Below are positions 9,707-64,000 of a stretch of DNA of 64,000 nt, one piece after another (position 1 is the first letter of the stretch; each line of letters begins with the position of its first letter). The notes beneath the pieces are model-generated. The model saw nothing but the letters and a program-made list of their open reading frames with translations, was not told where the DNA came from and ran no database searches. Source of the stretch: a virus; the IMG/VR virus record IMGVR_UViG_3300020214_000005, positions 1-64,000 of that record; one strand, 5' to 3'. The position numbers and the translations under genes were made by a program.

Positions 9707-10225
9707 CTACACCAAACGCAAGTCAATCCTCTTCCAAGCCTCGTAGACGAGTTTACGGATCCTGTTCTTCGTTTTGTCCACGGGTAACTTGAATGCCTCG
9801 TCAACGATGTCCCCCCTCCTGCGCAGGCAGGCGTAGGTGACCTCGAGGATCATGTCGTCCCAGGCGTCGGTGTTCCTCGCCATCAGCCATGTCCTCGGGT
9901 CGTAGACGCCGTGCTTGGCGAAGGCATGGTCCTCGATGTCCGCCTTGGTGGCGACGATCTCCATGTGCCACCCGACGGTCCGCTCTATCGCGAACACGAG
10001 GTCCATCACTCCGCTCTCGCCACGGGCTTCCTTGATCGTCCTGACGGCGTTGACGAAGCGCTCCTCGGCGATCAGCGCGCAATGGGCGTCTATCTCGTCG
10101 AGCCTGTCCTTGAGTTGCTCGTCGTTCTCGTTCTCGGCGATCTCCCTCATTATCTCGTAGTCCTCGAAGAAATCAGGCATGTCGTCCTCCCCGAGACCAT
10201 CCGGCCAGTCCTCGTTTTCCATCAC
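9707..10225 (-). CDS. Hypothetical protein
   Basis: 172 aa, acidic N-terminus. Confidence 0.7.
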   Translation of the reverse strand: MMENEDWPDGLGEDDMPDFFEDYEIMREIAENENDEQLKDRLDEIDAHCALIAEERFVNAVRTIKEARGESGVMDLVFAIERTVGWHMEIVATKADIEDHAFAKHGVYDPRTWLMARNTDAWDDMILEVTYACLRRRGDIVDEAFKLPVDKTKNRIRKLVYEAWKRIDLRLV

Positions 10226-11250
10226 GAACCTAGCAGAACCCTCTGCACGGAGAGCTTCTTCTTCGTCGTCATCGAGCTCTCGTCCATGCTCGCTATCGCC
10301 AGCTCCTCGGTGCTCGTGTGGCGGTAGTGGTCAAGGTACTCGCAGGCGGCGTTGTAGACCGACCAGGCGTTGTGCCCGAAGCGACCCGAGTTCCTGTCCG
10401 ACACGTACACCTTCCCGATCAGGTTCCACACCGACTCCCTGAACTCCCGCTCCCTTTGCGACTCGTTCTTCTTCCTGGGTTGCACGATGTTGAGTATCCT
10501 CTCGTTGATCATCCTCGAGGTGTTGGACACGGACGCCAGGGACTCCACGGAGCGCCTCACCTCGTCCCCCCACTTCACGGATATCCCCAGGACCTCACGG
10601 GCGTCCTGGATGATGGAGTCCACGTTGCGGGTGTGCCTCGCCGTGAAGACCCTCCTCGCCTTCCGCTCCCCGAGGATTATCGTGTTGTTGCACACGGCCC
10701 TCACCTCGGTGTTGGCGTAGCGGATCGGCCAGACGCCGTCGTGGCCCGCCGAAATGACCAGGTACCGGGCGAGGGAGTCGTTGACGCCCGAGCACGCGAC
10801 GCTGAGCGACCCGAGGTCTATCGTCGCGAAGAAACGGGCGCCCCCCTTGAGGACGCCACAGGTGTCGATCACCGCCCGGCCGCGCGACGCATTGACGACG
10901 GCCAACGCCCGCTCGAGCACCTCCTTGTTCTGCCGAACCTCGTACCTCGTGCCCACGGTGGCGAGGGGATCGAAGCTCCCGTCGTTGTTCTGCCTCATGG
11001 TGGCCCTGCCGTCCGGGATGATGATCGCCGAACCGTCGGAGTTCCTGACCAGCCTGCCCGAGTCGTCAACGGCGGCGACCTTCGTCAGGACCACGTCGTA
11101 ATCGGCCTGCGAGGCGACGAGCATCTGCTCAAGGGTGCCCATGTTCCTCACGGGCGTGCCGAGACGGTGCCACGGGATCTGCCGGTCGTTGTAGGCGAAC
11201 CGGGTCCAGCCCGTCTTCGTCCTCTCCAAACCGTGAGCCATTTTGTTCAC
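10222..11250 (-). CDS. DUF932/DUF945-like phage/plasmid protein
   Basis: PWHRLG, VGTRYEVRQN, GHDG, RAVCNNT, RHT, AWSVYNA..EYLDH. Confidence 0.8.
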   Translation of the reverse strand: MNKMAHGLERTKTGWTRFAYNDRQIPWHRLGTPVRNMGTLEQMLVASQADYDVVLTKVAAVDDSGRLVRNSDGSAIIIPDGRATMRQNNDGSFDPLATVGTRYEVRQNKEVLERALAVVNASRGRAVIDTCGVLKGGARFFATIDLGSLSVACSGVNDSLARYLVISAGHDGVWPIRYANTEVRAVCNNTIILGERKARRVFTARHTRNVDSIIQDAREVLGISVKWGDEVRRSVESLASVSNTSRMINERILNIVQPRKKNESQREREFRESVWNLIGKVYVSDRNSGRFGHNAWSVYNAACEYLDHYRHTSTEELAIASMDESSMTTKKKLSVQRVLLGS

Positions 11251-11321
11251 CTCCCTGGCGCAATTATCTCACAAAAGCAAGACTAATAAATTTGCGGCTA
11301 ATCACGGGAAAGCGATAGGCA

Positions 11322-11350
11322 TTGCAAATCGCCACGGGTGACCGTATCGT
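11322..11350 (+). promoter_or_regulatory. Leaderless-type promoter
   Basis: TTGCAA-17-TATCGT, ATG 6 nt later. Confidence 0.65.
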
Positions 11351-11356
11351 TGGACC

Positions 11357-12157
11357 ATGCCGAACAACGAAGAATCAGACCTCCTCGCCGAACAGGCGAG
11401 CGCATACCGCAATGTGATGATGTCCATGAAGAAGCTCGCCGTGCTCGCGGAGAAGGGGCCGGTGGACATCCCGTCGATCCTCGTCATTCGCTTCGGAACC
11501 AGCACGGGCACCGACGCCTACAAGCTCGCGAAGTCGTACGAGGCGAAGTCGCACGAGGGGAACAGCAACATTTTCTACGAGGAGAACGGGGCCACCCCCT
11601 ACCTCCTCCACGAGGAGGACGGGGTCGCGCTCTGCGAGGCGATGATAGACCTGAACGAGTACGTGGGCAGGGGCTCGTACCCCGGCAAACACATCTACGA
11701 GGCCCTCACGCACTTCCACGAGGCCTACAAAAACGTTTCGCCCTGGACCGTCGCCCTCGTGGCCGACGGGATCGCCTGCCACGCCGCCGAGGACCCCGAG
11801 TGGCTGAAGTTCATCGAGGCCCCGGAGAATGCCGACAGGGGCTTCCACGAGCTCTTCTGCGACGAGCCCGAAGCCCAGAAATGGCTCGGCGAATGCATAA
11901 GCGTCTTCCTCATGTCGATCACGGGCGAGATGGTCTCAGCGAGCGTCAACTACTCCTACGGGGACAAAACTTTCCCCCCCGAGCCGATCTTCCAGCCGTC
12001 CACGGTGCGGCAGGAGGGCAGCGTTTTCGACAAGGACAGGGATTGGCTCCAGGGGCAGCGGGTCATCATCCAGATGGTCCTCTTCTTCGCCCACCTGGAG
12101 GCCGAGGAGGCCAAATCCTTCTCCGATCTGGGCGACCTGACCCAGGGCCGTGACTAA
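11357..12157 (+). CDS. Hypothetical protein
   Basis: 266 aa, strong coding bias. Confidence 0.8.
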   Translation: MPNNEESDLLAEQASAYRNVMMSMKKLAVLAEKGPVDIPSILVIRFGTSTGTDAYKLAKSYEAKSHEGNSNIFYEENGATPYLLHEEDGVALCEAMIDLNEYVGRGSYPGKHIYEALTHFHEAYKNVSPWTVALVADGIACHAAEDPEWLKFIEAPENADRGFHELFCDEPEAQKWLGECISVFLMSITGEMVSASVNYSYGDKTFPPEPIFQPSTVRQEGSVFDKDRDWLQGQRVIIQMVLFFAHLEAEEAKSFSDLGDLTQGRD

Positions 12158-12216
12158 TGTCACTTCAGAGAAAGTCCCTGTTAGGGGTTGCAATCCCCGT
12201 GGGTTGCCCATAGAGT
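12149..12216 (+). promoter_or_regulatory. CRP-like box plus promoter
   Basis: CGTGA-N6-TCACT (12149-12164); TTGCAA(12188)-17-TAGAGT. Confidence 0.55.
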
Positions 12217-12291
12217 CTCAGGCAAGCAAATGCAAACGACAAATAACATATAGCGAAATAGCAATCAACTACTAAAGAAAAGAGATACGAC

Positions 12292-13158
12292 ATGAAGACC
12301 AAGCCAACCGCCGAGGACATCGAAGTCAGCGTGCAGACGATCACCCCGGAGGACGCCAAGGTGCTGTTGCAGACGAACGTCAACAACCGCAACCTGAGCC
12401 GACGCCGAATCGGGATGTACGCCAACGACATCAAGCGCGGCATGTGGAAGCTCACGGGTGACAGCATCAAGCTCGCCAAGAACCCCAAGACGGGCGAGGT
12501 TCGCCTGATCGACGGGCAGCACCGCCTGCTCGCCATCATCGAGGCCAACCTCCCGGTCCAGACCGTGGTCGCCACGGGTCTCGAGGAGGACGCCTTCTCG
12601 GTGATCGACCGAGGCAAGACGAGGACCTACAACGACGTGCTCAACATGAGCAAGGTCAAGAACGCCAACACGGTCTCGTCCGTCGTCCGACCCGTCATCG
12701 TGCTCGAGGCGGGCCTGAACCCCTACGGGGCGGGCATCGACCTCGTCACGCCAGAGGACGTCGTGCGGTACGCCATGGAAAACGAGGAGATGGTCCAGTG
12801 GGCCGTGAACCGCTCGTTCAAGATGCGCGAACACCTGTCGGGATCGGGCACGGCGTGGGCGATGTTCGTGTACCTGCTCGCCAGGAAGCACGGGATCAAG
12901 TGCGCCGAGGCCTTCAGCAACAGCCTGCTCATGGGCGTCGGCTACGGGATCGGGGACGCACGGGCCGCCCTGCGCAACTGGGTGCTCCGCAACTACGGGA
13001 AGTACAAGGGCACGTCGCGCGGCGCGTACGACCAGTGCGCCATGATGATCAAGACCTACAACTACACCGTGACGAACCAGAAGGTCGCCCAGCTCCGCAT
13101 GACCGACATCGGAGGCGACAACTGGCCGGAGTTCAACGCAAAGAAGTTCTCCGAATAA
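12292..13158 (+). CDS. ParB/Srx-like N-terminal domain protein
   Basis: ITPEDAKVLL..N.NNR...YANDIKRGMW...IDGQHRLLAI. Confidence 0.75.
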   Translation: MKTKPTAEDIEVSVQTITPEDAKVLLQTNVNNRNLSRRRIGMYANDIKRGMWKLTGDSIKLAKNPKTGEVRLIDGQHRLLAIIEANLPVQTVVATGLEEDAFSVIDRGKTRTYNDVLNMSKVKNANTVSSVVRPVIVLEAGLNPYGAGIDLVTPEDVVRYAMENEEMVQWAVNRSFKMREHLSGSGTAWAMFVYLLARKHGIKCAEAFSNSLLMGVGYGIGDARAALRNWVLRNYGKYKGTSRGAYDQCAMMIKTYNYTVTNQKVAQLRMTDIGGDNWPEFNAKKFSE

Positions 13159-37974: not shown

Positions 37975-38048
37975 GCCGGCGTAGCCCAACCGGGAGAGGC
38001 GCGAGACTTAAAATCTCGAGAGTGAGAGTTCGAACCTCTCCGCCGGCA
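37975..38048 (+). tRNA. tRNA-Leu(UAA), short variable arm
   Basis: GCCGGCG/CGCCGGC acceptor stem; CGAGA-CTTAAAA-TCTCG anticodon arm; GTTCGAAC T loop. Confidence 0.9.
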
Positions 38049-38197
38049 CGACGCGCGCCGTTCCCGAGTCCAGCGCGCCGGGCCGCCGACGGCGGCCGGC
38101 CGCTCGGGACCGCGGAGCGGGACGACGGGGAACGGGACCGCGGAGCCCGCCGCGGGAGCCCCGGGGGGCTCCGTATCCGACGGTGGCGGATGACCCG

Positions 38198-48750: not shown

Positions 48751-48824
48751 GTCCTCGTAGCTCAGCCGGATAGAGCGACGGCTTCCTAAGCCGCAGGTCG
48801 CAGGTTCGACTCCTGCCGGGGACG
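48751..48824 (+). tRNA. tRNA-Arg(CCU)
   Basis: GTCCTCG/CGGGGAC stem; anticodon loop TTCCTAA; GTTCGAC. Confidence 0.92.
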
Positions 48825-48827
48825 CAG

Positions 48828-51440: not shown

Positions 51441-51820
51441 GGGGCTGACAGGTTTCGACGATCGGTCTGTCCGGAGAGGATGCGACCCGAGTTGCTCAGA
51501 CTCGTTAAACAGGGCAAAAAAATAACTGCCAACAAGCAGTTCGCTCTCGCCGCCTAATCGGGCGACAGGGGAGCAACCGTGAGCCGCAAGGTCGCACGGG
51601 GCCGATCCACCGCAGCCCGGCAACAGAAGCGGGGATGACGACGGGAAAGGCCGTTGACCTCGGGGAACGAAAGCCCGACGACCTCTCGGAAAGACGAGAC
51701 GCGGCCTGGGCGACTAGGCGGCCGACCCGTCGGCGGCGGAGCGACAACGTCACAACGGGGATGGTCGTAGCAGTCTCCTCGGTATCCGCTCGGACGGGGG
51801 TTCGATTCCCCCCAGCTCCA
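51441..51820 (+). ncRNA. ssrA: tmRNA; tag (A)ANKQFALAA
   Basis: 5' GGGGCTGACAGGTTTCGAC; 3' GGTTCGATTCCCCCCAGCTCCA; tag ORF at 51528-51557. Confidence 0.93.
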
Positions 51821-51842
51821 CTCTCGGGACCGCCCGGTGCCG

Positions 51843-53545: not shown

Positions 53546-55077
53546 CCCTAACTTTCGGCAGTCTTTTCGCCGGCGTCGGTGGCTTCGATCTTGGCTTCGA
53601 GGCCGCCGGTTGGCGTTGCCAATGGCAAGCGGAATGGGACGAGCAGTGCCAGCGGATTTTACGCAAGCACTGGCCCAACACCCCCAAGTATTATGATGTG
53701 AAAGACGTTGACGGAAGGCTCCTGGAGCCGGTGGACGCGATCAATTTCGGTTCGCCGTGCCAGGATCTTTCCGTCGCCGGTAAGAGGGCCGGCCTAACTG
53801 GTTCTCGTTCTAATTTGTTTCACGAGGCAATGCGGATTATCAGGGAGATGCGCGATGCAACAAACGGAACTTTTCCAAGGCTCGCAATATGGGAGAACGT
53901 CCCAGGGGCCCTCAACTCCAACAAGGGAGCTGACTTCGGGGTCGTCCTCGACGAAATGGCTCTCGCAGGGGCTGTGGCTATCGAGTGGGCAGTCCTGGAT
54001 GCGCAATACTTCGGAATCCCCCAGCGACGGCGCCGCGTTTTCGTGTGTGCTCTCTTCGATTCTGGCGCCGCAGAACGAAGTTCCTTCCCGATATTATCTG
54101 TCTGCGAGGGCGTGCGCAGGAATTCTCAGAAGGGCAATAAGAAGAAACAAGACCCTGCCTCCGCGCTTGAAGGCGGCGCTGCAGGCGGTGGTGGACAAGG
54201 ACCCGGACCGGGACAGGGACAACTCGAGTTCGGAGTGAATGAGGAGCAGGACTCCACGGCGTTCAGGATGCGCGGCTTCGGCGACTACACATCGGACGGG
54301 ACGGTCTCCGCGATCAAGGCGCGCGATCACAAGGACGCTACCGATCTGATCGTGTCCGAACCGGAACCGTTCACTGCTACGAGTTTCGCCAAGTACGTCG
54401 AGGGAGTGGGAACTCTCCGGGCTGCCGGTGGGGACCTCGGCGGGGGCAGCGAAACGCTTCTTGCCTACGAAGATCCGGACACCATGGTGTTCCACCCGCA
54501 CCGTCAGGACGGAGTGAGAATGCAGGGCGACACGATCAACACGCTCACCGCCTTCATGGGGACCGGGGGCCTCAACACCCCGATGGTCGCCCAGGCGATC
54601 GGTTTCTCCCACACCCAGTGCCTCGATGCCCAGCCCTCGGAGGTGGCTTTCCCCACGCTGAGGACGGGCGGGGCGGGTCACGCCGTCGCCCACGCCGACA
54701 TGAACGACGGACTGGCCATGACATTGAGATCTGGCGGGGACGGAGGGGTGCCCTCGTCCCGCGGGGAGAACCTAGTCATTGAGCCGGACCGACCGATCGC
54801 CTACGACGAGTACAACGACAGGCTCGTCGACGGCGACGTGCATCACTCCCTTCGGGCCGGGACCAAGCAGTCGAGCGGCGTCATCCAGAACATGGTCGTG
54901 AGGAGGTTGATGCCGTCGGAGTGCGAGGCCCTAATGGGCTGGCCGAAAGACCACACTAGGTACACCGACGACGGCAAGGAACTCAGCGACACCCATCGGT
55001 ACAAGCAATGCGGTAACGGGGTGGCGGCGCCGGTGGCCGAATGGATCGCACGAAAATATGCGGTCATTTTTGAATAG
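53542..55077 (+). CDS. C5 cytosine DNA methyltransferase (probable CTG start at 53542)
   Basis: Motif I SLFAGVGG lies upstream of the called start at 53698; GSPCQ, WENV, QRRRR, RYKQCGNGV. Confidence 0.88.
   Translation: MTLTFGSLFAGVGGFDLGFEAAGWRCQWQAEWDEQCQRILRKHWPNTPKYYDVKDVDGRLLEPVDAINFGSPCQDLSVAGKRAGLTGSRSNLFHEAMRIIREMRDATNGTFPRLAIWENVPGALNSNKGADFGVVLDEMALAGAVAIEWAVLDAQYFGIPQRRRRVFVCALFDSGAAERSSFPILSVCEGVRRNSQKGNKKKQDPASALEGGAAGGGGQGPGPGQGQLEFGVNEEQDSTAFRMRGFGDYTSDGTVSAIKARDHKDATDLIVSEPEPFTATSFAKYVEGVGTLRAAGGDLGGGSETLLAYEDPDTMVFHPHRQDGVRMQGDTINTLTAFMGTGGLNTPMVAQAIGFSHTQCLDAQPSEVAFPTLRTGGAGHAVAHADMNDGLAMTLRSGGDGGVPSSRGENLVIEPDRPIAYDEYNDRLVDGDVHHSLRAGTKQSSGVIQNMVVRRLMPSECEALMGWPKDHTRYTDDGKELSDTHRYKQCGNGVAAPVAEWIARKYAVIFE
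53855..54238 (+). CDS. Alternative-frame nested polypeptide of the methyltransferase (M.EcoHK31I beta-like)
   Basis: LSSIL....VPSRYYLSARACAGILRRA..R.K.LP..L..AL. Confidence 0.6.
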   Translation: MQQTELFQGSQYGRTSQGPSTPTRELTSGSSSTKWLSQGLWLSSGQSWMRNTSESPSDGAAFSCVLSSILAPQNEVPSRYYLSARACAGILRRAIRRNKTLPPRLKAALQAVVDKDPDRDRDNSSSE

Positions 55078-55702: not shown

Positions 55703-55884
55703 ATGTCGTAGACGGTGGCTATCCCGAGGGCGTTTTGCCAATCAAACTTGGGAAGTTCGCCCAGCGGTTTTTCGTTTTTGTCCCGCGGACGGGCGAGCCG
55801 GACCACGAGCGTCTCGAGCTCCGAGATTCTGCGCTCCATTTCCTCGAACCTCTCGTCGATGTCAATCCTGTCGTTGTCTTTCAT
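55672..55884 (-). CDS. Small coiled-coil protein
   Basis: ATG overlaps nuclease stop. Confidence 0.55.
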   Translation of the reverse strand: MKDNDRIDIDERFEEMERRISELETLVVRLARPRDKNEKPLGELPKFDWQNALGIATVYDIYSGKTSSRD

Positions 55885-56282
55885 TTGTGTTTGAATTCCA
55901 CCCAGGTCTTGTCGCCGACGCCATAGTACTCCCGTGCGTAACCGGACTGGATGATGTCCTTGTTGAGGCATGCCGTCGTCGGATCGTCGATCTCGTCGGA
56001 CGAGTAGATATTGGCGAGGATTCGCCCGTACTTGTCGTTCTTGTCCGGGATCGTGTTGACGAAAACCCAGTCATGATTGGTCAGCCAGTCCAAAGTAAAC
56101 GACTTCGCCTTCAATCCGAGCTCTTTTTCCTTGAGGTCTTTTGTCCGCGACTCTGGTGCGTTGACACCGAACAAGCGGACGCGGATCTTATGGTGGATAT
56201 TGAAACCAAGGTCGATCATCAGGTCCAGGGTGTCGCCATCCACGACGTTGAGCACCTTGGCTCCGTACCAGAACCTTTGCAT
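55881..56282 (-). CDS. Staphylococcal-nuclease-like (SNase) protein
   Basis: VVDGDT, RVRLFGVNAPE, DKYGRILA. Confidence 0.9.
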   Translation of the reverse strand: MQRFWYGAKVLNVVDGDTLDLMIDLGFNIHHKIRVRLFGVNAPESRTKDLKEKELGLKAKSFTLDWLTNHDWVFVNTIPDKNDKYGRILANIYSSDEIDDPTTACLNKDIIQSGYAREYYGVGDKTWVEFKHK

Positions 56283-58224: not shown

Positions 58225-59559
58225 TCAGGCTGGTGCGCTGTTGAAGGTAACCTTCACGAAGGCTTCCGGCCTCTTGACCGCCAGCGCCAGGCGCTGCTCG
58301 GCCAGGATGACGATCGCGTTGCGGACGAAGAAGTCCGAGTGCTGTTCGCTGACTCGGATGCTTGCCTGCTCGCGGTCGTATAGCTGGGCGCCGGTTCCGA
58401 ACGCACCGACGAGGGCGGTGCCCTCGGCGATTGCCGGTGACTCGACAACCGAGGTCCTCCACAGCCTCGGCTGACCGCCGAGAGCCACGGAAACCGCGAC
58501 TAGGTACTGACCGTTGTCATCTTTCGAGAGTTCGATCTTCTCCCAGTCGCTCGGGTGCATGACCACGCCGGTCGGCTCGTAGTAGGCAAGGAACGACAGG
58601 GTCAGGGCGCGACGAATCGCGTCTCCCCTATTGTCCCCGGTCTGACCAGACGACCAGTTGTAGGTCTGGATTCCCGCCGTCTGAAGGACGCCCCTCAGGT
58701 TCTCGCCCGACCCGCTGCCGTTGAGGATTTGCGAGTCCTCAAGGAGACGCAAACCGTACATGAGCTCGTTGTCGATGATGCTGCGGAGCTGCGGTTCGTC
58801 GGCCAGCACGTTGCGGTGCGCGGCTTCCCAGTGGGCAAGCGTGCGGACCGAAGCGGCTTCGGCGACGAACTGGAGGCTCGACTGCGGCTTGGCAGCGAAC
58901 ACGTCCGGGTTCGGAGTCGTGTCTCGCTGTGCCACCGCAGCAGCGGCGTTTGTTGCCGTCGTTCCCGGCGTTGTGTAGCCGAGGTGACGGAAGTACTCGA
59001 TCACGGCCGCAGTGGTCGTGCGCGACGGGAACAGGTCCCTGACGCGCTTCGTCCTCGTCGGCTGGGTGACCATCGGGTCGCGCTGCACGGTTCCGAAGTT
59101 CGCCGTCGCACCGTTGGCAAGGTTGCCCGTCGGCATCGCCGAGAACACGTCCTTGACACCGTACTCGGTGAGCGAACCGGTGTACTGCCATGGTGAGGCC
59201 ATGTTGGCACCGTTGCGTCCCCCGTTGAGGGCCTTGAACTCCGGTGAGTCGACGAACTGTTGTCCGATCGACCTCGGGGCTTGCTGAACTGGTGCGATGA
59301 CCGCTGCTTGGGCGGCTATCGATGCATCGGCCGGGGATGAACCCCAGTCCTTCACCTGGTTGAGCGACTCGAGACCCTCAATGAGTCCCTTGATCTCGCG
59401 GATGTCGGACATGTTCTTGTCGAAGGCCGACTTCTGCTCGGTCGTAACGACGACCGTTCCGTTGTCAACGCGGAATGAGTCCGCGATCTCTTTGTTTTGC
59501 TGCATCTTTTCGCGGAGTGCTGACTGCAACTCGCGGAGCCTGCTCGTGTCTTCCGACAT
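58225..59559 (-). CDS. HK97-fold major capsid protein with delta domain
   Basis: Coiled-coil N-terminus; KP.S.LQF; LAHW; EDSQILNGSG; F.RN...ILAE.RLALAV.RPEAFV. Confidence 0.95.
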   Translation of the reverse strand: MSEDTSRLRELQSALREKMQQNKEIADSFRVDNGTVVVTTEQKSAFDKNMSDIREIKGLIEGLESLNQVKDWGSSPADASIAAQAAVIAPVQQAPRSIGQQFVDSPEFKALNGGRNGANMASPWQYTGSLTEYGVKDVFSAMPTGNLANGATANFGTVQRDPMVTQPTRTKRVRDLFPSRTTTAAVIEYFRHLGYTTPGTTATNAAAAVAQRDTTPNPDVFAAKPQSSLQFVAEAASVRTLAHWEAAHRNVLADEPQLRSIIDNELMYGLRLLEDSQILNGSGSGENLRGVLQTAGIQTYNWSSGQTGDNRGDAIRRALTLSFLAYYEPTGVVMHPSDWEKIELSKDDNGQYLVAVSVALGGQPRLWRTSVVESPAIAEGTALVGAFGTGAQLYDREQASIRVSEQHSDFFVRNAIVILAEQRLALAVKRPEAFVKVTFNSAPA

Positions 59560-59893: not shown

Positions 59894-62800
59894 CTACCTC
59901 CCAGAGAACGGAATAGTTATCGTTTGCGTCTTGCGCACCTCAATTTTACTGCCATCGGGGGCTGTCCTGTCCTTGTACAAGTATCTTAACAGGTAGGGGT
60001 GCTTTATCTGGAGGATCTGCGGCGCACCCAGCTGCCCGAGGAGCATCTGTCCGACGAGGAGGGGTTTCGTCGGGTCCTTCTCCGAGTCCCAGATGTACAA
60101 CTCGTCGAACAATTGCCTCTCAATGATGATGGGAAGTATCTGCTGGAGGTTCCACTGGATCTGTTCAACTATCCCTTCCGGCACGTGACGCCCGAACTGA
60201 TCTTCCCTGTTCAGCACCCTTTTTTGGATGACTGGCAACGGTGCGAAGAAGTAGTGGCCGACGATGTTGTATCCCTTCTTGCGCCAGTCAACCAGGTCCT
60301 GGAACCCGTCGTTGAACTGTCCGCTGGTGTCGTACACGAGGTCAAGCCCCTCCTCCGTGGCGGCCCTCGCCATCACGGCTGCCACCTGCCGCGACTCTCG
60401 GTGCACCAGGCCGGACGCGCTCTCCAGCCTGCGCGCGTACCAGAGCCTCGTCTCGGGCATCATTATTTTTGCGTCGTCCGGATCCGCCACGATGGCGCTG
60501 TCGTAGTTCGGTATGCCCGCCAAACCCATGTTCCTCGCCGTGGACTTCCCGGTCCCTGATCCTCCCCCGAGTATGTAGGCGGTCGGTCTCTGCTGGTCGT
60601 TGGGAATGTCGCCCCTCCTCGCCCGCTCGAGACTCAACTCCACGTACGGCCTCCATAACTGCTCCACCCGGTCCTTGTCGCCCCAGGCCGCAAACAGGTC
60701 GTCCCCGCCCCTCGAGGTGCCCACCCTGTAGAACCCTGCGGTGTCGCTGCCCTTTTCGAGGTGACTCGGCGGCATCTTGCTTTGCACCGACAGGAGACCG
60801 AGCTCGCGTGGCAGCGAATCATCTATGGGTTTGTCCGACATGCCCGCCTCGGCGCCCGGTCCGAATCTCCAGGTGGATGCGGCGACCCTGTTGCCCCACG
60901 GCATCAACGGGTGGGGCATCTTGTTCGATCCAAGGAACAGCTTCCTCCCCGTGGCCCTGCGGATGTCGTTTATCTGGGCGATCATCTTCTGGTTCCTCAC
61001 CCTCGCCGCCCGCGCAAGCATCCCGAGTCTTCTGTTGATCGACAGACTCAGGTCGCCGTACGGATCCGACGACGGATCGTTCTGCAGGTTTGCGACCGCC
61101 CTTCGTATCCACTCGGCATGGCCGAAGGCGAGCCTGTGCTGGCCCGCGGCTATCTCGGAGAGAGGAACCCAGCGAGCTCCCGACGCATCCGAGGCGGCGA
61201 CGAGTTGCGTGTCCCAGGGGACGACGAACATTCCGGCGCCGACCCTCACCCCGTTGACGAACCTCGGGTCCCAGTCTGGGGCTTCCATGGCGCCGAGGTA
61301 ATCCGCCTGCAGGGCGTTCTCAAGGGAAACCCCCACCTCTTCGAAGGTCTCGCGGGTCGCGGTCGTCATGAGGTCCTCGCCATCGTCCTTCAATCCGCCG
61401 ACGAGCGCCAAGGCATTCCTGTACGGGCCGCTCTTGCGCGTGATCATCGCTATCTCCGCCGTGCGAAGATCCAAGTCCCTCATCCTTATCATCACGGAGT
61501 CGGCCCCCTCGACGTAGATCGCGTCCTTGTTGAAGGACCAATTGCTGGTGCTCCAGTTGATGTCGTCTTCGGTGTAGTCAAGGTTGTGAAAGATGTTGAA
61601 CGGCGATCCCATGGATATGTTGTCGGCGACCTTTCGCAGTTCCGATTCGCTCATATCGACGTCCCCGTAGACCCCCTCGAAGTAACGCCTCTGATCGACT
61701 TCTTCGGAGCGAGCGAAGTTCCCGACGATGGGCTCGATCATGTCGGCGAAGTTCCTCGCCATCCCCGCCTCGGCGTCGTCGGTCTCGTCCGGCATGTGCT
61801 CGTCGTTGTCGAAGTACAGGCGCATGCTTGACTTCAGTTTCGTGAGTCGCGTTTGTTCCGAGTTGTCGGTCACCATCGCGTCCGCCCTGTCCATGGCGTG
61901 CCTTATCGCCCCCAGGAGGTCCGCCGGTTCCTGGCCGTTGTCACCGAAAATGAGACGAGAGTTCGTTGGGCGCACGGCGTCCGCCGAGAACGGGGATTCC
62001 CCTCCCCTGAAGTCCACGGGGGAGATTTCATTGCTCGCCGCCATCAGTGAGTAGATGTCCATTAGGCGCTCGACCTCGTCGACCAGCTCCCCGTCGGTGG
62101 CCGTCCCCACGGCGACCGATATGCGTCGGTCCGAGTTAAACCACATCCCGTTCGCGAGGAGTTTGTTTCGCTTGAGGTCGTCACTTCTGTCCGTAGAGTT
62201 TGTTCTGGCGCGACTTGGCGACATTCCCGCCTCCGGACTCAACGGCATTCCGCTCAAAACCCTTGCCGTAGCAATTGTCGCCTCGATGACGTCCGGGCTT
62301 ATGTTCTTTGATCGAAGCGCCTGTTTCACGCCGTCGTCGTTTTCGTTGCCCCTGAGCCTGTCGTTGAGAATCGCCAGGATCAGGTCGCCGAGGTCAATGA
62401 ATTCGTTGCCTCTTTGCGAGGAGGCCTTGAGTGCGCCGATCAGCGCCCGGTGTGCGGCCTTCGTCCATTTGGTGGGTTTCGGGGAGGGACCGTCCTTCGG
62501 GGTGGTCACGCCTTGGAGGGCGTTGATCATGTTCTCTACCGAGATGTTCAGTCTTCTCAGGGCCGTCAAGTACGTACCAGTTTCGGGGTGGGTCATCACA
62601 TATCTCCAGGCCCCCAACAGGAGGTGTCCTGCGTTTACATCGGGCGACCCCGACTTCGCCGCGTCCTCGTAGGCTTCCACGATTGAGAAAACTGTGTCGT
62701 TGGTGAACCGGGCCATCACCATTCTGGTCAGTGCGGACATGCCCGCCTCCGCGCCGGTTCCTCTGTCGCCTCTGTCGTAGGTCAGCTCGGGGAATCCGTT

Positions 62801-64000
62801 GGCGTCCAGCCATTCGTTGAAGGTTAAGAGCTTCGCGAATCTCTCGTCGTCGCTTAGCAGCGAGTCCTTGATCGGGTCTATCATCTCCCTCTTGTACCTC
62901 GGCAGCAAAATCCTCCGTTTGCGCGCCCGCTCGGTCGCAAGTATGAAGGGCTCCATCTCCCTGACGGCCTCGCCGAGCGTCTTGACCGACCCGTAGATGC
63001 CGCTCCGTATGTGCTGCTCGAAAAGGGTGCCCAAAGTATCCTGGGCCTCGGCGTAGTACCTGTTGTACCGGGTTAGGAATTCGCTCTGCTCGGGGGTGAG
63101 CTGACGAACATCGTCGGCGCCGTCGGCACCCGTGTGCCGTGCGATAATTCCCAAGAAAGTGACCCAACCGTCCTGGTCGTCGTGAATCTTTTCTACGACA
63201 GTCTGGCCGAATTCCAAATCACCGAACAGGGAATGGACGTGCGCGCGGGCGACCTCCTCCGCCAGCTTAAGGTGCGTCTCGTCGTTGATGGATCCGCTCT
63301 CTCGCAGGGTGTTCAGGAGTTGCTCTATGACATACATTTGTGTCTGGAAATCGGTCTGTCGCATCCCAATCCCAACCCTCATAGTGTCCAAGCCATTCTT
63401 GAACGCGGCGACCTGCCTGTATCCGATTTCCATGTTGGATCGGTGGGTCTGCAGGATGCCCTTGATCAGCGGTATCATGAAATTGTTTCTAAAATCGTTA
63501 GACTCAGGCCCGTCGGGTCTGCTCAGGATTGTGTGGGCCAAAGTCAGGTGCGGTTTTCCCCCGAACATTGTGATCACTTCGAGCGGTGACGTGATAAACA
63601 TTTCTTTCATCGCATTGATTGACTCCGAGAAACTCTTGCCCGTGACGGGGTAGATGTCGTCCATTCGGTCCAGGTCCAGCCACGGGAAGATATTCTTCAG
63701 CTGACGAAGGACGGCGTCTTTCGTCACCGTTCCCGCTGGGATCCCTTTGATGATGGGCCCGATCCACTCGTCGAAGCGGTCCAGTTCGGCGACTGGGTAG
63801 CCCATTCCCAGAAGCCGTCCAAAAGCCCTTTTGAGCAACTGGCTCGGTTTCTCCTCGACGAGCGCGGCATCCTCGAAGGCAATCATCGACGAAACGTAGT
63901 CCGCGAACTCCTCGGGGTGCATCTCCAGTATCTGATCGTCCCCGAGTTCACCGTAGGCGGATGCGGTCTCCCACCAGTACTTCCCCGGGGTCTCGTCTAT
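59894..64000 (-). CDS. Giant multidomain protein, 5'-truncated by window: Clp-N repeat domain, Nudix hydrolase, zeta-toxin-like P-loop kinase
   Basis: Frame open to 64000; ARFT...GHLLLG...IDLGDLILAIL; GGLKDDGEDLMTTATRETFEEVG; GGGSGTGKST, DPDDAK, YDTS. Confidence 0.85.
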   Translation of the reverse strand: MDETPGKYWWETASAYGELGDDQILEMHPEEFADYVSSMIAFEDAALVEEKPSQLLKRAFGRLLGMGYPVAELDRFDEWIGPIIKGIPAGTVTKDAVLRQLKNIFPWLDLDRMDDIYPVTGKSFSESINAMKEMFITSPLEVITMFGGKPHLTLAHTILSRPDGPESNDFRNNFMIPLIKGILQTHRSNMEIGYRQVAAFKNGLDTMRVGIGMRQTDFQTQMYVIEQLLNTLRESGSINDETHLKLAEEVARAHVHSLFGDLEFGQTVVEKIHDDQDGWVTFLGIIARHTGADGADDVRQLTPEQSEFLTRYNRYYAEAQDTLGTLFEQHIRSGIYGSVKTLGEAVREMEPFILATERARKRRILLPRYKREMIDPIKDSLLSDDERFAKLLTFNEWLDANGFPELTYDRGDRGTGAEAGMSALTRMVMARFTNDTVFSIVEAYEDAAKSGSPDVNAGHLLLGAWRYVMTHPETGTYLTALRRLNISVENMINALQGVTTPKDGPSPKPTKWTKAAHRALIGALKASSQRGNEFIDLGDLILAILNDRLRGNENDDGVKQALRSKNISPDVIEATIATARVLSGMPLSPEAGMSPSRARTNSTDRSDDLKRNKLLANGMWFNSDRRISVAVGTATDGELVDEVERLMDIYSLMAASNEISPVDFRGGESPFSADAVRPTNSRLIFGDNGQEPADLLGAIRHAMDRADAMVTDNSEQTRLTKLKSSMRLYFDNDEHMPDETDDAEAGMARNFADMIEPIVGNFARSEEVDQRRYFEGVYGDVDMSESELRKVADNISMGSPFNIFHNLDYTEDDINWSTSNWSFNKDAIYVEGADSVMIRMRDLDLRTAEIAMITRKSGPYRNALALVGGLKDDGEDLMTTATRETFEEVGVSLENALQADYLGAMEAPDWDPRFVNGVRVGAGMFVVPWDTQLVAASDASGARWVPLSEIAAGQHRLAFGHAEWIRRAVANLQNDPSSDPYGDLSLSINRRLGMLARAARVRNQKMIAQINDIRRATGRKLFLGSNKMPHPLMPWGNRVAASTWRFGPGAEAGMSDKPIDDSLPRELGLLSVQSKMPPSHLEKGSDTAGFYRVGTSRGGDDLFAAWGDKDRVEQLWRPYVELSLERARRGDIPNDQQRPTAYILGGGSGTGKSTARNMGLAGIPNYDSAIVADPDDAKIMMPETRLWYARRLESASGLVHRESRQVAAVMARAATEEGLDLVYDTSGQFNDGFQDLVDWRKKGYNIVGHYFFAPLPVIQKRVLNREDQFGRHVPEGIVEQIQWNLQQILPIIIERQLFDELYIWDSEKDPTKPLLVGQMLLGQLGAPQILQIKHPYLLRYLYKDRTAPDGSKIEVRKTQTITIPFSGR

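Follow-up and report, generated by a model that had tools for sequence, protein, structure and literature searches.

A recurrent EAGM-type linker peptide in giant head-module proteins of uncultured tailed phages, and its candidate role as a prohead-protease site

A giant gene beside the capsid gene

The DNA examined here (the window) comprises bases 1-64000 of the 97,935-bp IMG/VR virus record IMGVR_UViG_3300020214_000005, which has a CheckV completeness of 65 per cent and comes from a large uncultured tailed phage with a genome of about 150 kb. Our subject is a short peptide, EAGM, that recurs along a giant open reading frame (ORF) at the end of the window and that may mark places where the encoded protein is cut. 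The window cuts this ORF short; on the full contig it extends over 59894-74812 on the minus strand and encodes 4972 amino acids (aa). An initial annotation, made from the letters of the sequence without database searches, had placed this gene just upstream of the capsid gene and had described four (A/P)EAGM motifs in it, and both observations are correct: the capsid gene lies at 58225-59559, and a direct read of the DNA finds the Met codons of the four motifs starting at 62740, 62224, 61762, and 60841 on the minus strand. The features of this region are as follows; orthologous peptides are from relatives of the phage that are described below.

58225..59559, minus strand: major capsid protein gene (phrog_10, 2.4e-59), directly downstream of the 4972-aa ORF
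59894..64000, minus strand: in-window 3' portion of the 4972-aa ORF, its last 1368 codons; the ORF continues past the window
62738..62749, minus strand: EAGM linker motif, aa 4022-4025 (GTGAEAGMS), ahead of the ClpC-N-like module; orthologs ANAGMS (G006), TDAGMS (L009), PVASMS (L010)
62222..62233, minus strand: EAGM linker motif, aa 4194-4197 (LSPEAGMS); orthologs PSAAMG, AEAGMS, PTASMS
61760..61771, minus strand: EAGM linker motif, aa 4348-4351 (DDAEAGMA), ahead of the Nudix module; orthologs ASAGMA, PEAGMT, PTASMG
60839..60850, minus strand: EAGM linker motif, aa 4655-4658 (PGAEAGMS), ahead of the zeta-kinase module; 12 lineage variants at the same boundary

Extending the scan to the rest of the ORF and to the other proteins, as the initial annotation had suggested, showed that these four belong to a larger set. 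The 4972-aa protein contains 10 copies of EAGM, with Met at aa 711, 876, 1094, 1725, 2311, 3009, 4025, 4197, 4351, and 4658, where 0.085 copies are expected from composition. In 200 shuffles, no 4-mer of any kind rose above 6 copies. Five further copies lie in two other minus-strand ORFs of the head module (four in an ORF of 2845 aa, one in an ORF of 707 aa), giving 15 across three head-module ORFs. The extended consensus is G-x-G-(A/P)-E-A-G-M-(A/S/G). Two weaker candidate sites, EPAGGM at aa 2335 and EAMAAMG at aa 520, were seen through orthology only.

Two other matches were considered and set aside. The sole extra EAGM in the six frames of the contig, at window position 51626 (+), is non-coding and falls inside a transfer-messenger RNA (tmRNA) gene. 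A GAGM at aa 4525 lies inside the Nudix fold described below, and its counterpart in the relative G006 reads GAGL.

The motifs lie in linkers between folded modules

We modelled aa 3950-4972 with AlphaFold2 from a 14-sequence alignment (mean predicted local distance difference test score, pLDDT, 73). Stretches with pLDDT below 50 cover model residues 1-11, 63-84, 237-257, 332-344, 386-423, 692-705, 707-712, and 788-790. The four motifs are at model residues 73-76, 245-248, 399-402, and 706-709, each in or flanked by such low-confidence coil. Only 13 per cent of the model has pLDDT below 50, and the probability of finding all four sites there by chance is about 3e-4. In this model the in-window motifs are linkers between folded modules. 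The initial annotation had put them at domain boundaries, before a Clp-N domain, an unknown domain, a Nudix region, and a zeta-like kinase, and the predicted structure and fold matches agree; no motif was found inside a predicted fold, all four being in coil between folds. The modules that they separate, from N- to C-terminus, are listed here.

62246..62719, minus strand: ClpC/ClpC1 N-terminal-domain-like module, aa 4032-4189, model residues 83-240; VIA-align Z 17.2, root-mean-square deviation 2.2 A, 137/137 aligned; Foldseek template-modelling score about 0.8
61811..62194, minus strand: helical module without assigned fold, aa 4207-4334, model residues 258-385; a folded block in the AlphaFold2 model
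61046..61585, minus strand: Nudix hydrolase module, aa 4410-4589, model residues 461-640; Pfam PF00293, 1.1e-8; VIA Z about 16; Foldseek
59969..60778, minus strand: zeta-toxin/AvrRxo1-like P-loop kinase module, aa 4679-4948, model residues 730-999; Pfam PF06414, 2.4e-19; Walker A GGGSGTGKS

The ClpC-N-like fold fills the gap between the sites at model residues 73-76 and 245-248. As modelled, it is a structural look-alike of the ClpC N-terminal domain, with no Pfam Clp_N match at E<=1. The Nudix assignment has a Pfam score of 35.5 bits against a 21.1-bit cut-off; the module's nearest folds are the NrtR/NadM ADP-ribose pyrophosphatases, and by reading of the translation its Nudix box (GX5EX7REUXEEXGU) is intact with one conservative deviation. 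The kinase module scores 70 bits in Pfam (Zeta_toxin, cut-off 22.3 bits) and matches the epsilon/zeta, PezT, and AvrRxo1 structures with VIA Z of 15-16.6, the match with Z 16.6 covering model residues 737-996 (Foldseek 1gvn, 3q8x, 4z8q). The helical module has no family match in Pfam or PHROGs, and there is none for its range among the structure matches listed for the whole model.

Several unrelated effector-type domains (ClpC-N-like, Nudix, and zeta/AvrRxo1-like) are carried by a single ORF that adjoins the capsid gene. Most modules of the 4972-aa protein beyond these three have no family in Pfam or PHROGs. The same two databases gave no MuF (Phage_Mu_F), MPTase, or peptidase match in it, in a mostly family-less protein where a divergent domain is possible. 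For the neighbouring 707-aa, 918-aa, 1869-aa, and 2845-aa ORFs, no families were found in Pfam, PHROGs, a PDB sequence-profile search, or the ESM Atlas.

Each lineage has its own word at the same linkers

The capsid protein, which is 46 per cent identical to that of Brevibacterium phage Cantare, has 367 relatives in IMG/VR, and we fetched 80 of their loci. In most of these, the DNA upstream of the capsid gene contains ORFs that are 1000 to >3200 aa long. A short word recurs in many of the relatives' giants, and the word varies by lineage:

L008: (D/S/N/E)AGM
L009: (E/D)AGM
L010: (P)TASM
L024, L036, L039: (S)ISGRM
L063: ITGAM
L081: GLTGAM
L017, L050: GVSG(K/R)M
L044: GP(I/V)GKM
L019, L033, L051, L072: (G/R)LSSG

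The linker ahead of the zeta module can be followed across these lineages by alignment, since it precedes a conserved P-x-D-D-S-L. Its 12 variants are AEAGMS, VNAGMS, PTASMG, GPVGKMA, SISGKMS, VIAGKMA, GVSGKMS, SISGRMS, KITGAMG, GVTGKMS, DGLTGAI, and RRGLASSG.

The closest relative with orthologous sites is G006, the contig of locus L008, which encodes a 5348-aa ortholog of the 4972-aa ORF. About nine sites map one to one between the two proteins, and at these sites position -3 is D, S, or N in G006 and always E in the phage studied here. Such concerted change at many independent sites is the pattern expected if many substrates track one recognition factor. In total, G006 has 27 strict copies of xAGM followed by a small residue, spread over four giants that include a protease-bearing one (see below), together with further AAM variants. 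Across close relatives, the Glu is replaced at orthologous sites by D, S, N, M, Q, or T, and what stays constant is small-small-Met-small. Met is itself absent from the motif in the GLSSG and LTGAI lineages.

In one complete relative, the 137.8-kb G005, the word is also confined to one part of the genome: all 13 copies of ISGRM and one ASGRMG lie between the portal and capsid genes; a six-frame translation of the remainder contains one ISGKMT and one non-conforming RSGRMR. The ISGKMT copy is in a 1698-aa ORF (7419-12512, minus strand) on the opposite strand and outside the block, and may be another substrate or a chance match. A tblastn search of INPHARED with the in-window segment returned distant single-domain matches only, mainly to Nudix genes, and revealed no cultured phage that is built in this way.

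The peptide rather than the DNA is conserved

The initial annotation had also pointed out that each in-window motif reads, at the DNA level, as a Shine-Dalgarno-like GAGG 5 nt before an in-frame ATG. We confirmed this: the four sites read GAGGCGGG(C/A/G/C)ATG, that is GAGGCGGG-N-ATG, and a GAGG stands 5 nt before the ATG at all 15 sites in this phage. The Glu codon is GAG at 15/15 sites, compared with about 65 per cent GAG among Glu codons preceding Ala in these genes (P about 0.002).

Synonymous variation in the homologs, a check that the initial annotation had proposed, shows motif codons varying freely. GAGG is present at only 2/27 strict sites in G006, where the Glu codons at sites are two GAG and two GAA, and where the 27 xAGM sites have D, S, N, E, M, or Q with mixed codons, Ser being written as both TCN and AGY. 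Three EAGM copies in L009 are written with GAA. The TASM sites of L010 (ACN-GCN-TCN/AGC-ATG) have no purine-rich tract, and in the ISGRM sites Ser is encoded by TCN or AGY, and Arg by CGN or AGR. Third positions of the motif Ala and Gly codons vary as well. Because the codons are free to vary, including between both Ser and both Arg families, and because GAGG is rare in G006, the comparison indicates that selection acts on the peptide and not on the DNA. The GAG bias in this phage is a residual oddity that may come from Asp codons (GAC) that recently changed to Glu codons, the genome being GC-rich.

A prohead protease heads one of the giants in relatives

An S78 prohead-protease domain was found in 8/10 relatives tested: all 5 complete ones plus G006, G007, and G009. 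In G006 and G007 it occupies roughly aa 48-200 of motif-bearing giants of 4384 and 4580 aa, respectively. In G007, and where the protease has a separate ORF, the motif is present behind the protease module, at about aa 317-372 (G001, G005, G007, and G009). Pfam places the portal gene immediately upstream of the S78 giant in relatives. We had considered the 707-aa ORF as a portal, which became unnecessary with this placement.

The gene order in G006 (sizes in aa) is portal 740, S78 giant 4384, 604, 705, 1807, 3781, 943, 717, 1828, 376, 5348, capsid. About 62 kb of mostly giant ORFs thus lie between the protease and the capsid gene in this incomplete genome; in the complete G005, the region of giant ORFs (putative polyproteins) takes up about 35 kb of 138 kb. 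The gene order of our contig agrees with that of G006 along its whole length. The contig breaks off within its counterpart of the 1807-aa ORF, and the protease giant is therefore expected immediately past base 97,935. Portal Pfam models had no match on our contig. When the portal and protease of Cantare and of Gordonia phage Gray were compared by BLAST with our contig and the relatives' loci, only the capsid protein matched. The truncation of the contig would explain the lack of protease and portal matches.

Some segments of the giants recur among the ORFs of this block. The N-terminal segment at aa 113-190 of the 4972-aa protein is also found in the 1869-aa and 918-aa ORFs and in the G006 giants, including the protease giant, and may serve to target the proteins to the capsid. 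A DUF3721-like, Cys-containing segment at the N-terminus of the giant (aa 26-91) is homologous to the C-terminal part of ~240-aa proteins encoded directly upstream of the capsid gene in many relatives. A 316-aa ORF (contig 74886-75836) carries a DUF5872-like segment, and relatives' giants match this ORF at their N-termini. In relatives, a 'KDP.GGLTAAGRAHF' stretch is conserved after the S78 protease.

Candidate effector polyproteins

Taken together, the sequences and the predicted structure make it fairly likely that the giants are effector polyproteins that are processed by a protease and probably packaged. To judge from the sequence comparisons, the linker peptide most likely serves as the site that the phage's own prohead serine protease, of the HK97 type (S78), recognises. 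One of the two ideas in the initial annotation was that the motifs are prohead-protease sites releasing packaged effectors. Its outline is supported by the position of the motifs in linkers, their recurrence in head giants, their concerted change, and the fusion with S78 in relatives. Its further suggestion, a cut after Glu as in T4 and phiKZ, finds no such support, since Glu is replaced at orthologous sites and the protease is of family S78, not S77. Because Glu is not conserved and small-small-Met-small is, the scissile bond is probably beside Met, either Gly-Met (G-M) or between Met and the next small residue (M-small), rather than after Glu.

On this proposal, the giants would be co-assembled into the procapsid, in the slot where scaffold or internal head proteins are usually encoded, and the S78 protease would then cut at the linkers. 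The released modules would remain in the head and, together with the DNA, pass into the host, where they would act as early effectors. Packaging and injection are suggested by the gene position, by the common N-terminal segment (aa 113-190), and by precedents in T4, phiKZ, and SPN3US. We extend the proposal to the whole clade of about 140-170-kb uncultured phages more tentatively, with a little less than even confidence: between the portal/protease genes and the capsid gene, its members may devote much of their genome to polyproteins in the style of RNA viruses. Dozens of exchangeable effector modules would then be made as a small number of giant chains, one of which would start with the S78 protease; the chains would be packaged, cut at a word that coevolves with the protease, and injected as a counter-defence arsenal.

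Several points count against processing by the phage's S78 enzyme. We found no S78, S77, or ClpP match on our 65 per cent-complete, 98-kb contig, so the presence of the protease is argued from synteny with G006. Lineages with differing motifs have a highly conserved S78 domain, so that any change in the specificity of this enzyme would be hypothetical. The capsid protein contains zero copies of EAGM. Two of the 15 sites fit poorly: for the EAGM at aa 2308, relatives have no motif at the orthologous position, and the flanks of EDEAGMID, the copy in the 707-aa ORF, are atypical. The invariant-looking Met followed by A/S/G, with all-GAG Glu codons, would also suit an in-frame translation start. 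The structure model covers 4/15 EAGM sites, and cleavage, packaging, and injection are all proposed from sequence and predicted structure.

The missing protease, the contrast between a very conserved S78 domain and lineage-variable motifs, and the motif-free capsid protein could all be accommodated if the sites are truly cleaved by some other enzyme, a host protease or another phage protease, possibly after injection; Iyer et al. (PMC5512222) consider post-injection processing for their polyvalent proteins. We regard this as unlikely. Copies of the motif are restricted to the block from portal to capsid, and one comes after the protease module itself in four relatives (G001, G005, G007, and G009). 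Concerted change specific to each lineage fits a phage-encoded partner better than a conserved host enzyme, and Pfam and PHROGs detected no peptidase domain other than S78 in the giants. Alternatively, the motif might not be cut at all. It is short, rich in Gly, Ser, and Ala, and sits in disordered linkers of proteins whose genes adjoin that of an HK97-fold capsid protein; it could be a docking peptide for the capsid interior, scaffold, or a chaperone, comparable to encapsulin cargo-loading peptides, or simply a preferred flexible linker. Encapsulin targeting peptides, however, are usually single and terminal, and a generic linker would not keep a four- to five-residue word at 15-27 sites that changes in concert. 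Where there is a precedent for a single word repeated across many head proteins, the word is recognised by a protease (PMC10052503), and we consider an uncut motif quite unlikely.

The second idea in the initial annotation, internal starts or relics of gene fusion, fares worse. Under the former, the motifs would be in-frame internal starts (GAGG-N5-ATG) giving nested, N-terminally truncated products, possibly besides cleavage. The uniform GAGG spacing and GAG codons of this phage speak for such starts, as do Met being the most conserved residue of the motif, a following A/S/G as at many natural N-termini, and the frequent GGAG-N3-ATG of TGAM lineages. Even so, the codon usage at orthologous sites in G006, L009, and L010 and at ISGRM sites shows that it is the peptide that is kept, and the motifs of the GLSSG and LTGAI lineages have no Met. 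There is also no stop codon between modules, so internal starts alone would yield nested C-terminal sets and could not release separate modules; we judge them very unlikely. The other version, in which ribosome-binding sites and start codons remain from the serial fusion of once-separate genes, would explain an ATG with an upstream GAGG at each domain boundary, and Nudix domains do occur as separate genes in other phages (INPHARED). Relics would decay independently, yet each genome has one peptide, different genomes differ at orthologous positions, and the A-G spacer is kept as amino acids with varying codons. This makes fusion relics highly improbable, and processing by the S78 prohead protease remains the reading that we favour.

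Comparison with known systems

The phenomenon combines two known ideas, head-maturation proteolysis at a single motif and polyvalent proteins. In SPN3US and phiKZ, a single short motif marks the sites at which the prohead protease cleaves many of the head and ejection proteins (PMC10052503). In T4 (gp21) and phiKZ/SPN3US (gp175/gp245), as proposed here, one phage protease has one motif in many head-module proteins including itself; some substrates are cut repeatedly, and the products, which are retained in the head, pass into the host on ejection (PMC10052503; PMC5694885). Those proteases, however, are S77 enzymes that cut after Glu (LxE, AxE), whereas the motif here is associated with S78 and does not conserve Glu. 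Their substrates are of ordinary size and mostly lose N-terminal propeptides, whereas here unrelated folded domains are set apart by 4-10 sites in giants that reach 4972 aa (in G006, up to 5348 aa and up to 11 strict copies per ORF).

Polyvalent proteins, as described by Iyer et al. (2017; PMC5512222), are likewise very large phage proteins that combine unrelated effector-type domains, with zeta-toxin-like kinases among those listed. They are encoded among late or virion genes and were proposed to be packaged, injected, and proteolytically released. NUDIX is mentioned there only as fused to or encoded beside InPase domains. Autoprocessing by embedded zincin-like MPTase domains was proposed for them (PMC5512222), whereas the candidate here is the S78 prohead enzyme, with a co-varying word at the junctions. 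A text search of that paper shows no use of the term 'linker', and the passages on cleavage name no motif.

Cantare and Gray belong to the same capsid lineage as the phages studied here (capsid proteins 43-46 per cent identical), and both encode an S78 protease with a C-terminal extension between portal and capsid (Cantare gp13 and Gray gp34). In these two phages, the protease gene is 417-455 aa long, adjoins the capsid gene, and has no EAGM-type motif. In the present clade, by contrast, the extension of the protease runs to thousands of residues, and there are insertions of additional giant ORFs.

A more distant likeness is to the polyproteins of RNA viruses, retroviruses, and African swine fever virus, in which many functional proteins are made as one chain that a virus protease cuts at a repeated consensus site, the site coevolving with the protease. 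There is no homology with these systems; the present case is a tailed double-stranded DNA phage in which the arrangement is linked to a capsid-maturation protease, and its products would apparently be accessory effectors, not replication proteins or core structural parts. In literature that we covered incompletely, we found no published description of linker-punctuated giant phage polyproteins with a lineage-specific cut-site word.

If the linkers are cut, this would be a true polyprotein strategy in tailed phages and a new way for one gene to supply a capsid with many different proteins in fixed ratios. The set of motifs (EAGM, xAGM, TASM, ISGRM, ITGAM, GVSGKM, GLSSG, and others) would then be a natural experiment on the evolution of HK97-type protease specificity. 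The motif could also serve as an annotation tool, as it splits thousands of unannotatable residues into modules, each a candidate injected effector. The ClpC-N look-alike, the ADP-ribose-type Nudix module, and the AvrRxo1/zeta-type kinase could act on host proteolysis, nucleotide signalling, or NAD metabolism. The N-terminal domain of ClpC binds adaptors and phospho-arginine, and the module that resembles it might interfere with Clp-dependent proteolysis in the host. There is a physical question too, namely how a capsid for a roughly 150-kb genome would make room for cargo protein in megadalton amounts.

Other features of the contig

Outside the giants, a 191-aa protein encoded at contig 83925-84500 on the minus strand (L004:9926-10501) has a near-invariant Cys/His-rich core that includes CAWLHHETTGLWPNEGCHHP.MKNC. 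The core is identical over 17 aligned sequences (ours and 16 relatives), and homologs occur in 37 loci. Searches of Pfam, the PDB, and the ESM Atlas gave no match for this protein, and PHROGs gave one weak match, phrog_6439 (function unknown; E 1.8e-4). The possibility that it is a metalloprotease was considered and was unsupported by any search. The gene is always just upstream of the conserved ORF of ~700 aa.

Two genes downstream of the capsid gene, past a 601-aa ORF, the window encodes an endonuclease (phrog_452; 55881-56282, minus strand), followed by a DNA methyltransferase (53698-55077, plus strand). The tmRNA gene mentioned above is at window 51441-51821 (+), with the tag peptide ANKQFALAA, and two tRNA genes were identified, tRNA-Leu(TAA) at 37975-38049 and tRNA-Arg(CCT) at 48751-48825. 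Base composition is uneven along the window. GC skew is strongly positive from about 18-33 kb, and positions 1-4000 have an AT skew of -0.78 to -0.84 at 68-73 per cent GC, leaving the plus strand there almost free of A.

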